Assembly: GCA_964646995.1 (NCBI GenBank)
Contig: CAZYIF010000001.1
Location: forward strand, 157,528 to 221,527
Reading direction: 5' to 3'
DNA length: 64,000 bases
Origin: an uncultured Gammaproteobacteria bacterium
Lineage (GTDB): Bacteria; Pseudomonadota; Gammaproteobacteria; CAZYIF01
Numbering within the stretch: position 1 is the stretch's first letter; the number at the start of each line of letters is the position of its first letter. The position numbers were made by a program. This document shows positions 21,001 through 27,000 of the stretch, piece after piece.

Positions 21001-24000
21001 ATCAAATAATAAGTTATGTGGTTTGGTGCTTGATCTGCGCAATAATCCGGGTGGTTTACTGGATACCGCAATTGAGGTTTCTGATCATTTGATTCATAGC
21101 GAACAAGGCAAAGAAAAAGTGATTGTGATGACCAAAGGTCGCGTTGCAGGAACCGAATTTACGGCCAATGCACGTGCCGGTGATTTAATGCAAGGTGCAC
21201 CGATAGTGGTGTTGATTAATGAAGGCTCTGCTTCCGGATCAGAAATTGTGGCGGGAGCGTTGCAAGATAATAAGCGCGGTGTGATCCTTGGCACCAAGAG
21301 TTTTGGCAAGGGCTCGGTGCAAACGGTGTTGCCATTAGACGAGAAGCATGGCATTAAATTAACGACGGCGCGGTACTACACGCCATCGGGACGTTCTATT
21401 CAAGCTACCGGTATAGTGCCAGACGTTGTTGTTACTGAGGCGAAGCTAGCTGAGGTAGAGAAGGAGTTAGAAGAAAAATATGCGGTTAAAGAGTCGGATT
21501 TATTACGTCACCTAACCGCAGGTGGTGATAAGCATAACGAGCAACAAGATAAAGCCAAGCAGGAATTACAAACCTTGGCTAAAGACGATGCGCAGCTTTA
21601 TCATGCTGTCGTGTTGTTGCAAGCGTTAGATGTGTTGCAAGAAAAGCATAAGCACGATCCGCGTCCCGAACCGGCTGCAGCGACGGCCGCCAGCAGTAAG
21701 TAGTTGTGCACCGCGCGCGCGATACGTTGGGACGTTTTGGGCGCGCTGGGTTAGAGGTATAGATATGTGGTGTGGCTGGTTACGTTGTTGTGTCGTTGCG
21801 GCTTTTTGCACGACGATAGGGGGTGTTCCTTTGTCGTCGCTGGCGCAACCGGTGGTGAGTATTATTATCGATGATTTAGGCAATCGTCACGCGCTAGATA
21901 GGCAAGTCATAGCCTTACCGGGTGCGGTGACCTGTTCCATTTTGCCACGTTTGCGGTGGACCAAACCATTGGCGCGCGCGGCGCACCATCAACACAAAGA
22001 GGTCATGCTGCATGCGCCCATGCAAGCGATTGTTCCCCACGATTTGGGTCCGGGTGGTTTACGTGTGGGTTTAGATGAAGACGAATTCACGCGCATTGTA
22101 CAGGATGATTTGGCTTCCCTATCGCATGTGCGAGGCTTGAATAATCACATGGGTAGTCTGTTAACTCAGTCGGTGTCGAGTATGCATTGGTTAATGACAT
22201 ACCTTGCAACAAGTGGCATTTATTTTGTCGACAGTCGTACCAGTGCGGATTCGGTGGCGGCGCAGCAAGCGCGTGCGTTGCATGTGCCGATGACAACGCG
22301 GGATATTTTTTTAGATAATGTACAAGACGAAGAGGCCATTCGTCAGCAGTATTATCATTTATTGCGTGTCGCTAAACGTCACGGCAGTGCGGTGGCCATA
22401 GGTCATCCTTATCCGAGCACGATACGTGTGTTACAACAAGAATTGCCGCAGCTAGCCGCGCACGGTTATCGCTTAATCCCCATCAGTGAGCTCATCGCGT
22501 TGCAGCAGAAAGCCAGGGTTGCGGTGAGTCATGCGTAAGGCGGGTGTTTTGCAGGAAGGGATAAAAGGCAGTTTGGTTTGCATTTTACTGCGTTTCAAAC
22601 TGTATTATAGTGGTAATACTTCTGCACTTATGCAAATGGCAAATAGAACGTATATACGTTATTCTACGCGACATTAGAATGATATAATTTTTTCATGGTG
22701 ATTTTTATTAGTATGTGTTAACCGATTATTTTATAATTAAGCCACTAAATTTAGTGGTGGAATCGAAACGTGCAAGGTCCCAAAAAACGTTTACCGGTAG
22801 ATACTCTCTTACTTTTGGGGGCTGGCGCTTCGTATGCTGCCTCTCTAGATAACAAAGGTGCTGAGAATACCAAAACCGCTCCATTAGATGGAAGTTTTTG
22901 TTTAACAATTGATAACTTAACTTGTAAAAATCCACAGTGGGTTTCAAAAACCAGAGACACTATCCGTAAAAATTGGAAAGATCCTAGCTTAATGAAAGAC
23001 CTAGGACTTGAAGAAGCTATAATAAGGAAATTAGGCTACTTTGATGTAGTCGATGCTATACATAAAAGACGTGCTAGTCGTGATAATCCGAAAAAATTTC
23101 TTGAAGACATAATTCGAATAATTACTTTTGTGTTAAGAAGAACCAGAGAAAATGACGATAGTGGGTTATATAGGAAGCTTTTCGAACGCTATTTTAGTTC
23201 AACTAGCTCTAGTGAGAAAAGCAAGAATAGAGTGATCACTTTCAACTATGATACGATGCTCGATAAACACTTTCTAAAAAATAATAAACCTCAGGAAGTA
23301 TATTTTAATAACTTATTATCGGAAGAAACATATACAGGTAAATTTGAAAATCCACTTTTACTAAAGTTGCACGGTTCAATAAATTGGGTTTGTAAAAAAG
23401 AGTTAATAAATGGGATGTTTAATATTACTGATAATTCAGAGCAATATAAAATTAGTGAGATTTGGCACAAAGAAAAATATTCCTTAGATTCTGATAAGGA
23501 TTTAGATAGTCCTTGTATAATGCCACCATTGCCTAATAAACCAATTATACAAATTGAGCTTTTTAAAGATCTTTGGACTAAGGCATACGCTTATCTTTTG
23601 GAGGCAAAACATTTAGTGATTTGTGGATATTCTCTACCTATAACCGATCGATTAGCTACTGCGTTGTTTACTAGTCTTACAAACAAATCGCTTGAAAGTG
23701 TAACGATTATCGATCCAAACCCTGCAATTATGCTCAAGTGGAAGACGCTGTTAAAAACAAAAAATAATAGAGCAGTTCGCTTGGTTTATTTTACTGAACT
23801 GAATGAGTTTTTAGAAAAAGAAAAATTGTCCGATTCAGAAAAATAGAAAACGTAGCAGATTGTTTCCCCATGAGATCCCCTCCTTTTTTATTGATTATAA
23901 GAAGTTACTAAATATCGCTGCCCTTCTAGACGTCGCTACACGACCCTCAGGGCGAACGGATTAATTAAGAATTTTTGCATGTTATGTGTAGCAAGCGTTC

Positions 24001-27000
24001 AACAATGATAAGCGGTTGTCTTCAAGTACGGCGCGTCTGCAACGCCGGCACACTAAAGCGTTTTTGATCGCAAAGACGCATGGCCGTTAGCTTATTGCCC
24101 CAGACACAACCGGTATCTAATGCATGCGTGTTGGCTTGTTCGCTGCGACCGTTTAATGCGGCCCAATGTCCAAAGATGACTGTGACATTGGCATGCGCGC
24201 GCCAAGGCACGGCAAACCAAGGGATTAGCGCCTGTGTTTCGGGATTGGGGCTGCTTTTTTCTTTCAAGGATAAATTGCCGTCGCTATCACAAAAACGCAG
24301 TCGCGTGAGACAGTTGGTAATGAAACGCAGGCGATCCCAGCCGGCGAGTTGTGGTGTCCAGTGAGTGGGTTTGTTGCCATACATCTGTTGGAGAAAATCA
24401 AGGTAGCGTTGTTCATCACGTAGCACGGTTTCTACTTCATGTGCGCATTGCCTGCTGAGTGCCAGATCCCATTGTGGTGCTAAGCCGGCGTGTATCAAGG
24501 TGTATCCTAAATCAGGATCATGGTGTAACAGGGGTTGTTGGCGTAGCCACTGACACAGTGCTGATTTATCGGGTGCTTGCAGGATATCGCCAAATGTATC
24601 GCCTGGTTTTAGTGCCGCAACACCCGCAGCTACCGCCAGTAAATGCAGGTCGTGGTTACCCAACACGACTACCGGTGCAGGTTGTAATTGGGATAAAAAA
24701 CGCAGCGTTGCGAGTGAGTCAGGGCCGCGGTTGACTAAGTCACCGGTGAACCATAAACGATCGCGGCTAGGATCAAAGGCTATTTTTGTTAATAGTAACT
24801 GTAATTCGGCATAACAGCCTTGCACATCACCAATGGCGTAAGTAGTCATCGAATCAGCGTGTCAAACCAGGGGGAACATGCCGCAAGTGCATGCCGTGAT
24901 CGCTGCCGTGTCCCGTTTGCGGTAGCACGTGATCTATATTGGGATGTGGATTGATCATCGCATACGGTACTTTGCTTTCGGGTGGTGTGCCTTCTAAGAA
25001 AATAGTTTGGACATTGCTTATTAAGATGGCTTTGACTAACTTAGTTTGTTCCGCAGTACCTAGGCGTACTTGTCGAATATGGTTGTTGTTGTTGTCGGCA
25101 CGGCTTACGCCCAGTTGTGTCAATTGGCTGACGACATCTGTCCATGCCAATGCATTAATTTTTTGATTACCGGAATTGGCCTGAAACTCTTTAATGAGGT
25201 CGGCTAATTTAGGAAACGTCAGCAACACGCCTTCTTTTGTCACTTGCACGGCTGATGACGGATCTTTATTGATGGTGATATTTTTATTTTGTTGTTGAAT
25301 ATTTTTCTGTAACCATTGTAAGAAGGCAGCAGCGGCTTCGGCGGCATTAAACACAGCGTTAGCTTCAGGGTTGTCTTTGCCAAACTTATTGGTTTGCGCG
25401 GCATCTTTATTAAAGAGTGTGGTATTCGTTTGTTGTGTTGTGGCTTGAGCATCTTGTTTGTATTGTTGCGCAATTTGCTGTTGTTTCTCGTTGAAGTATT
25501 GCATAACGGATTCCAACTGCGACAGTGGAATTAAACTAGCTAATGATCCCGTACGCTGCCAATCCTCCTCCAGTAGCGCCAACCATATTTTTAATACGTC
25601 GTTGTCGCTAGTAATCCAGTTAAATCCTGCTTCCGGCACGATCTGTCGTGCAAAATAACGAGTTAAAGCATAACTTAAGTAGTCATCATTGTCCGCAACG
25701 AATTGATAATGGTAATAGCGATAGGTCGTGCTGGACATGGCGCCTGCGAGTGGTTGCCAACTGGTAGTTGCTTTATCGGATGTTTGCTGCAAGCGAACCT
25801 GTAGTTTTGTGATCACGTGGCCTAAGCGATGCAGTAAGGCACTGGTAAATACCACGTACAACCATAGCGCATGCGTTTCAGAAAGTAGGTTGTATTGTGT
25901 GGTGTGAGGTAGTAGTTGATGATAATAGTGTGTTGTGGCGATGCTCGCACGATCCAGACCATGAAGGAGTAGACCGTGGTGATTACTGTAATAGCTACTT
26001 TCTGTGGCGGGTAATTGTTGTGCAAACGCAGCAAAGTTTGCCATAGTTTGCGTACACAATGCTGTATAAGGAGCAGGAAACTTTAACAGTTCCTGTAATT
26101 TATGGCAGTGTAATTGAGCGTCATGGTTACGCAATAATTCATTTGCAGGTAAAATTGCTAGTGTATTTGCAGTCATCGCGGGTTCTCTAGTATAGGTTGG
26201 TTTGATGAAGGTTGATTGCTTCTCGGTGAAAAATTCCGTTGTCATCCGTGTTGCCTCTTTAGCGTAATGGTCCGGCGCGTTAAATATACTTCTAGCGGAC
26301 AAATCTTGTTATCCTATAGGTGCCTCACTCCATGCATTCGCTGGAGGGGGAGGCCAAAGCGCTATTATATACATTTGTTGTTGGTATTTGCGACTTTTTG
26401 CGTTTGGCGGCGGGAAGCGCTGGATTTGTTGGGAACCTTGTGTGGGGTAACTCGAGTCAAACAAATAAAGGAAAAAGGTAACTATTCAGCAAATTTTAAA
26501 AGCGATTATAGTTGTGCTTGAAAACGCGGTATTTTCTTTACACGATGGCGATTCTCCCTTTAAGCGCCGTTAAGCCCAGTGTTACTGGGTAGGCGTAAAG
26601 GCAGTATTAACAGTAATGGTGCAAAAATTTTTTGCTTATTTTTTTCCGGTAACTAGGAATGATTCATTACGCGATGGGGATTCTCCCTTTAAGCGCCGTT
26701 AAGCCCAGTGTTACTGGGTAGGCGTCAAATCAAGGGTAACTATTCAGCAAAATGCGGAATAGTTACGAAAAAGTAATGCTCAAAGCATAGCAGTTTTTTT
26801 CATTTGTGCTTAAATGGGCGGTGGAATGTGGCAGTGGAACTCAATAACATGCGGCAATTAAGTAATCATTACGTGCAAGCGAAACGTCTCACCTTATTGT
26901 GTGGTTCAGTGAATATCGTGTTGGCACTGCTTAAACTCAGTGTGGGCCGTTTAGCCAATTCGCATGCATTGTTTGCCGATGGTGTACATTCACTCTCTGA

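Follow-up and report, generated by a model that had tools for sequence, protein, structure and literature searches.

The locus described here lies in a 64 kb stretch of DNA from an uncultured gammaproteobacterium (contig CAZYIF010000001.1; hereafter the window, meaning the whole 64,000 nucleotides analysed). A 358-codon open reading frame (ORF) with a GTG start occupies positions 22770-23846 of the plus strand and encodes a stand-alone SIR2_2 protein. It is the one gene of an AT-rich islet of ~1.35 kb that has its own predicted promoter region, and it is positioned at the exact meeting point of two conserved blocks, gpmI-envC-ctpA-yibQ and apaH-TraI_2-CDF-glnA. The original prediction, an earlier reading of the sequence alone, had put the gene at the end of the gpmI-envC-yibQ block, and it does adjoin yibQ, the last gene there. 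Gene order at the locus is identical in assemblies from two separate sequencing runs (L001 and L180). The features of the islet and its borders are as follows.

21765..22538, plus strand: yibQ (divergent polysaccharide deacetylase), which ends the gpmI-envC-ctpA-yibQ block; left border, outside the islet.
22560..22769, plus strand: AT-rich upstream spacer of the islet (guanine-plus-cytosine (GC) content 0.18-0.35 in 60-nt windows), which includes a GGTGG Shine-Dalgarno-like element ahead of the SIR2_2 GTG.
22584-22611, plus strand: sigma-70-like site TTTACT-16-TATAGT, a candidate promoter by match to the consensus only.
22770..23846, plus strand: stand-alone SIR2_2 (SIRim-type) gene, 358 aa, GTG start, predicted single compact SIR2 fold.
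22809..22844, plus strand: nicotinamide adenine dinucleotide (NAD)-binding glycine loop LLLGAGASYAAS, residues 14-25, with G17-A-G19-x-S21 invariant in the family.
Residues 40-145 of the protein: helical insertion of ~100 residues within the SIR2 fold.
23232..23252, plus strand: VITFNYD, residues 155-161, with catalytic-type Asn159 (AAC, 23244-23246) and Asp161; aligns with TTNYD of the SIR2 chains of SIR2-HerA.
23364..23387, plus strand: KLHGSINW, residues 199-206, with catalytic-type His201 (CAC, 23370-23372); aligns with KLHGSINW of PsSIR2.
23616..23648, plus strand: VICGYSLPITD, residues 283-293, with G286-Y-S-L-P290 and D293 invariant; C-terminal Rossmann strand/loop.
23847..23900, plus strand: AT-rich downstream edge of the islet; GC is host-like from ~23900.
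24022..24849, minus strand: apaH, which ends the conserved ORF182-glnA-CDF-TraI_2-apaH block; right border, outside the islet.

The SIR2_2 gene is compositionally foreign. Its GC content is 33.4% compared with 47.4% in the flanks, as the original prediction of an islet of low GC would have it, while its GC at third codon positions (GC3) is 0.267 compared with 0.43-0.52 in all eight neighbouring genes. Among gene-sized stretches of the window it represents the GC minimum (0.325, against a mean of 0.479 and a standard deviation of 0.033), and the AT-rich tract extends from ~22560 to ~23900. The best homolog of the protein is only 45% identical and comes from unrelated taxa; ApaH has relatives at 66%. 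AT-richness is furthermore a signature of the whole family, beyond this genome: in 23 of the 25 loci compared for composition (L002-L014 and L084-L095), or 22 of the 24 that are independent, the family gene is AT-richer than its flanks (sign test, p ~2e-5). It lies up to 31 GC points below them, in hosts whose GC ranges from 33% to 68%.

Considered as a genomic island, the locus has atypical composition, and the gene is missing beside apaH in two relatives (L178 and L179). It has no mobility hallmarks, and in the relatives available, which are distant (66% ApaH identity), yibQ and apaH do not form a junction. No meaningful direct or inverted repeats flank the islet borders and no integrase lies nearby; no tRNA was detected in the whole 64 kb. 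A search of the islet for a hidden partner, antitoxin or RNA returned no credible small ORF and no Rfam match, and the spacer from the islet to the apaH stop (24021) folds no better than its shuffles (z 0.10).

All four SIR2_2 motifs named in the original prediction were found in the translation of the 358-aa ORF. Pfam recognised a single family, SIR2_2 (PF13289), with a significant match over residues 154-289 (E 7.1e-7; 29.8 bits against a gathering threshold of 24.5). No NCBIfam model matched the protein, and the PADLOC matches were weak and partial, to Aga_SIR2 and SIR2 models (E ~1e-6 to 0.02), the best being Aga_SIR2 (E 6.5e-7, residues 142-211). The family alignment of 42 sequences (A1) contains 39 invariant positions, all of which the window protein retains, including G17-A-G19, S21, P38, D40, R154, T157-F-N159-Y-D161, K199-L-H201-G202, W206, P252-P253, K257-P258, G286-Y-S-L-P290 and D293. 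In the same alignment the GTG start coincides with the family N-terminus. The PF02146 match and Zn-binding Cys4 module of canonical sirtuins, and the linked macrodomain of SirTM, are all lacking, as are a Zn-ribbon and any fused sensor domain. No N-terminal signal sequence was detected. The description of the protein as stand-alone therefore stands: it is a single domain with intact catalytic Asn and His, and nothing is fused to it.

AlphaFold2, run on A1, gave a single compact domain with a mean predicted local distance difference test score (pLDDT) of 91.1, a predicted template modelling score (pTM) of 0.91 and no segment below 50; in this model, the N-terminus forms beta-strand 1 of the Rossmann fold, from residue 10, and the G-loop. 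Structural comparison figures were 19.1 for PsSIR2 (8w9l; 272 residues aligned), 17.6 for 8yhx_G, 15.6 for Nezha Sir2 (8j4u), 14.4 for Af-Sir2 (1ici), 12.9 for SeThsA, 12.6 for KomC, 11.4 for Avs5 and 10.2 for FAM118B. A single-sequence phmmer search of the PDB produced no match at E<=1, and the family profile recovered only two SIR2-HerA SIR2 sequences, at a marginal E of 0.003-0.005, with TTNYD, KLHGSINW and GYxxPxxD in register. Based on its motifs, invariant residues, predicted fold and structural matches, the window protein is a complete SIR2_2-type Rossmann enzyme with the Asn159/Asp161/His201 site used by defence NADases. The model places it nearest in structure to the HerA-associated SIR2s, yet in a separate sequence family.

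A search of 5.8 billion proteins identified 1468 relatives; those among the matches listed were ~345-390 aa, and the best non-self match was 45% identical (E 3.5e-96). When 1.84 billion 50%-identity representatives were scanned exhaustively with HMMER, 74 clusters reached E<=1e-30, 2666 reached E<=1e-10 and 8196 reached E<=1e-3, with scores falling from >200 bits to ~120 bits past the 74 clusters, which marks out a discrete close family. None of the best 150 family representatives exceeds 439 aa. The solo architecture is thus a trait of the family and of the wider radiation, and no peculiarity of this genome. Most homologs carry a precomputed PF13289 assignment, and databases label short solo SIR2_2 proteins ‘SIR2 family protein’. 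One member of the family, P0018 of Thiohalobacter thiocyanaticus (AP018052.1; L002, 8001-9068), bears the name ‘polyribonucleotide nucleotidyltransferase’ in NCBI and UniRef, and looks like a mis-annotated SIR2_2 protein.

The close family has a patchy spread among free-living bacteria of many phyla from marine, saline and sediment habitats, with members in Thiohalobacter, Halorhodospira, Halomonas, Marinobacterium, Oceanicaulis, Cyanobium, Phycisphaerales, Nitrospinia and a TARA ocean contig. The window protein forms a long branch, with P0002, P0003 and P0009 nearest to it. No close family member was detected on any of 2.9 million viral contigs, and BFVD contained only canonical phage sirtuins (template modelling score 0.40); a phage origin of the gene was rejected on these grounds.

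Family loci drawn from genome, metagenome and viral collections were compared by all-against-all BLAST of every ORF within 7 kb. Across the 25 close-family loci, no neighbour family was common to more than three. The neighbours that close loci do have in common lie kilobases away: HsdM occurs in two loci and a ~1050-aa protein in three, of which L011 and L093 are one contig. Repeating the comparison with 56 more distant SIR2_2 loci, whose proteins are mostly 345-405 aa, likewise gave no recurrent partner. A conserved partner, whether HerA, UvrD or another, was therefore rejected family-wide, and the suggestion that a hidden partner might be found beside the gene in other genomes came to nothing. 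The absence of SLOG, HerA, pAgo and TIR partners, asserted for the window in the original prediction, holds there and across the family, and APAZ and STAND partners are likewise missing from both. Individual members nevertheless occupy varied contexts, of which the following were annotated.

L002 (Thiohalobacter): HsdM, family gene, NOV_C, Xre/MbcA, VapB, AbiEii, HNH and RES; a defence and toxin-antitoxin (TA) island.
L003: family gene beside TraG and TrbC; type IV secretion system.
L004: Type I restriction-modification (R-M).
L183: AbiJ_NTD4, family gene, Mrr_cat and DUF3987.
L185 (1611-12188) and L186 (2695-12160): operon of ResIII, small ORFs, N6_N4_Mtase, SIR2 and UvrD-helicase, in which the family gene is embedded with gaps of 13-15 nt or an overlap.
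L187: integrase/Prim-Pol element, without UvrD; the next member of the R-M/UvrD sub-clade.
L189: family gene between transposases and a TraG fragment.
L181: lone family gene amid metabolic genes, as in the window.

The two members embedded in the R-M/UvrD operon (P0089 and P0108) are 71% identical and form a small sub-clade; integrases, HigB and TrwC flank the L186 operon. Such an operon may be a composite module for defence, in which a Type III-like R-M system is joined to SIR2 and UvrD. When the individually annotated contexts are taken together with a bulk scan of 141 neighbour genes, defence islands or mobile elements account for roughly one third of the well-flanked family loci and core contexts for the remainder.

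On the other side of the islet, the nearest ApaH homolog is only 66% identical (Gammaproteobacteria metagenome-assembled genomes), so no close relative of the source organism was available for comparison. Synteny was compared on the apaH side with two distant relatives, L178 (ApaH 66%) and L179 (60%). The window gene directly upstream of apaH is the following.

24854-26302, minus strand: TraI_2/TraI_2_C (MobH-like) gene.

The original prediction had read this gene as a TraI-like relic. A TraI_2-like gene lies in the same place in both relatives, directly upstream of apaH and overlapping it (L178, 6652-8813; L179, 6706-8831), and the ORF182-glnA-CDF-TraI_2-apaH order of L178 is collinear with window positions 24022-30046, at protein identities of 42-86%. 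The window protein also scores below the NCBIfam cut-offs for MobH (122 versus 200) and the relaxase of integrative and conjugative elements (ICEs; 113 versus 161). Its retention beside apaH and its sub-cut-off relaxase scores identify it as a conserved core partner of apaH, and an origin as an ICE remnant was rejected. Instead of serving conjugation, the protein looks like a domesticated relaxase-family member (TraI_2/MobH-like) that is encoded in one core operon with the Ap4A hydrolase. In the same block, a 182-aa ORF downstream of glnA (29498-30046, plus strand) has a counterpart of 42% identity at the same position in L178 (3221-3745); it has only a faint Big_7 match and is conserved in the lineage.

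Downstream of apaH, both relatives carry an hfq or HIT gene after a ~60-nt spacer, and no SIR2, yibQ or ctpA gene lies within 8 kb of their apaH. Since apaH does not adjoin yibQ in either, the SIR2_2 gene lies at a synteny breakpoint and an ancestral yibQ-apaH junction is not demonstrable; the earlier description of an insertion between these two genes cannot be upheld in that form. Elsewhere the window consists of ordinary chromosomal DNA that encodes PutA, ValRS, PepA, FtsH, EptA and an MFS transporter. Three of its ORFs, all on the plus strand (47776-49032, 51191-52738 and 56295-58547; 418, 515 and 750 aa), lack any Pfam match at E<=1e-4, and may correspond to the ankyrin and OTU effector-like genes of the original prediction or be lineage-specific genes. 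A 606-aa ORF at 62127-63947 (minus strand) matches only UvrD_C and UvrD_C_2, with no N-terminal helicase domain, and may be a truncated or divergent helicase-nuclease.

The explanation that we favour, with belief and doubt about evenly balanced, is that the gene encodes a horizontally acquired, self-contained SIR2_2/SIRim protein, acting as a NAD+ glycohydrolase in an abortive-infection-type defence. The enzyme would be kept off, probably by autoinhibition within an oligomer in the manner of other defence SIR2s, and the protein itself would sense the infection cue, for which the helical insertion and the variable loops are candidates. That cue would turn the enzyme on, destroying NAD+ and aborting phage infection. 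We infer the NADase chemistry, the immune role and the oligomeric switch on direct infection sensing alike. The suggestion of a solo defence protein of undescribed architecture was borne out in part: a defence role is the most likely, and the architecture is a known one, given the thousands of short solo SIR2_2 clusters, AbiH, and a SIRim clade already proposed to be immune. The window gene is thus a member of a solo subfamily within SIR2_2/SIRim, with AbiH as its functional precedent.

Extended to the family as a whole, a more tentative proposal, possible but doubtful, is that these ~355-aa proteins could be the smallest self-sufficient SIR2 immune proteins. One SIR2_2 domain would both sense infection, through the helical insertion or an oligomer-to-filament switch, and deplete NAD+, with no need of a sensor domain, partner ATPase or signalling nucleotide. 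It would do so either alone or as a component of R-M/UvrD operons such as those of L185 and L186.

Several observations weigh against a defence NADase. The neighbours of the gene in the window are all core genes, and 141 neighbour genes drawn from 15 further loci yielded essentially a single Type I R-M system in PADLOC, while their Pfam matches were mostly to housekeeping families. The family is conserved rather evenly along its length (mean column identity 48%), where a direct phage sensor would be expected to be more diversified. Sequence similarity to the validated defence SIR2s is marginal in the PDB profile search, partial in PADLOC and absent from NCBIfam. NADase chemistry cannot be told apart by sequence from that of an ADP-ribosyltransferase or a deacylase. 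The closeness to the SIR2 of SIR2-HerA leaves the switch-on of a solo protein unexplained, because HerA is required there. In the searchable literature, we found no paper testing any member of the family, nor a validated solo SIR2_2 protein of similar type.

Among the rival explanations, the protein could be a NAD+-dependent transferase or deacylase, acting by ADP-ribosylation of proteins, nucleic acids or small molecules or by deacylation, in a regulatory or stress role instead of an immune one; it would then be an accessory metabolic or regulatory enzyme that happens to be mobile. We regard this as somewhat unlikely. It is unlikely that the protein is instead an effector module whose partner (an R-M/helicase complex, or a HerA-like ATPase in trans) lies elsewhere or is adjacent only in other genomes, the gene here being an inactive orphan or working with an unlinked gene. 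The embedding of the L185 and L186 genes in the ResIII-N6_N4_Mtase-SIR2-UvrD operon, the HsdM gene that precedes the family gene in L002 and the obligate HerA partnership of the closest structural relatives all speak for such a module. However, the UvrD/R-M link is limited to the 71%-identical pair and is already lost in L187, neither the close nor the distant loci have a recurrent neighbour, and all flanking genes in the window are identified as core. The window protein also retains every invariant residue, and the gene is therefore under selection here as a lone gene.

That same integrity bears on the idea, in our view very unlikely, of a functionless remnant stranded by the decay of a mobile element. 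A single foreign gene of unameliorated GC, with no integrase, repeats or tRNA nearby, is what such decay could leave behind, but the reading frame is intact and full-length, no invariant residue has been lost, the structure is predicted with confidence, the N-terminus agrees with that of the family, and both a promoter-like site and a Shine-Dalgarno-like element are present. Least credible, and extremely unlikely, is secretion of the protein as an effector against a eukaryotic host cell, whose NAD+-dependent processes it would deplete or modify; the original prediction had offered this as its second candidate role. What favours it is circumstantial, namely the ankyrin and OTU-like window genes of that prediction and the three large ORFs with no Pfam match. 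Against it, close family members come from free-living bacteria, the surroundings of family genes are R-M systems, TA loci and integrative elements instead of secretion-system effector islands, and the N-terminus carries no signal, residue 10 being already the start of beta-strand 1.

For this genome the gene is a routine accessory gene, unsurprising to the specialist and of moderate interest. The family is of wider use as a clean experimental model for the control of a SIR2 NADase that has no regulatory domain. If it confers phage protection by itself, it would represent a minimal sensor-plus-effector form of SIR2-based immunity and a mechanistic model for AbiH-like solo sirtuins, including how a NADase with no regulatory domain stays off. 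The consistent AT-richness of the family relative to its hosts would then help to single out cargo defence genes that are stranded in the core chromosome and missed by island-based pipelines. If the family proves instead to be a transferase or deacylase, it would reveal a non-immune branch inside a clade now assumed to be immune.

SIR2 domains are described as depleting NAD+ in DSR1/2, SIR2-HerA, SPARSA, ThsA and Avs5 defence. The superfamily has been divided into sirtuins and ‘SIRim’, with most of SIRim proposed to be immune and defence systems 12-fold enriched near SIRim genes (Bonhomme et al., 10.1101/2024.09.18.613514). The best structural match of the window protein is the SIR2 subunit of SIR2-HerA/Nezha (PDB 8w9l, 8wld, 8sub, 8j4u and 8yhx), although identity is only 14-17% and the profile E-values are marginal. 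That SIR2 requires HerA for its activation (PMC11514289). A HerA ATPase adjoins the gene in neither the window nor any of ~80 family and superfamily loci, so activation through HerA assembly cannot apply to the window protein. The Sir2 homologue of Vassallo et al. is likewise part of a system, PD-T7-2, with a HerA-like partner (PMC9519451).

DSR1 and DSR2 are single-gene systems, as here. Their N-terminal SIR2 NADase shares the Asn/His chemistry, and Foldseek matched the window protein to the SIR2 domain at E ~5e-5. DSR2 is described as a ~1000-aa protein in which the phage tail tube is bound by MID and C-terminal sensor domains (PMC11850899). In contrast, the window protein stops at the end of its SIR2 domain (358 aa) and lacks the large C-terminal sensor region. 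Other partnered systems differ in the same direction. ThsA of Thoeris has a SLOG/Macro fusion and a ThsB/TIR neighbour, both missing here, and no KomB partner of the kind found with KomC (Kongming) lies beside the window gene; both systems are activated by signalling nucleotides through domains that the window protein lacks. SPARSA combines an APAZ fusion with an adjacent short pAgo, whereas the window protein has only the weak partial Aga_SIR2 match and no pAgo neighbour.

Short SIR2_2 proteins also occur in vertebrates, where FAM118A/B are activated by filament or hetero-oligomer formation (PMC12700824). These eukaryotic (SIRanc) proteins are far more distant, with weak NAD-processing activity and a signalling role. 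AbiH of Lactococcus (PF14253), a validated single-gene abortive infection (Abi) protein of sirtuin-like fold that is often ICE-borne and whose mechanism is unknown (PMC13064643), offers the best functional parallel to a solo SIR2-like defence gene. It is similar in size, solo and grouped with the immune sirtuins. AbiH belongs to a different sequence family, the window protein having no PF14253 match at E<=0.01 and no PADLOC AbiH match at E<=0.1, yet the two share their architecture: a single gene encoding a sirtuin-like protein of roughly 350 aa.

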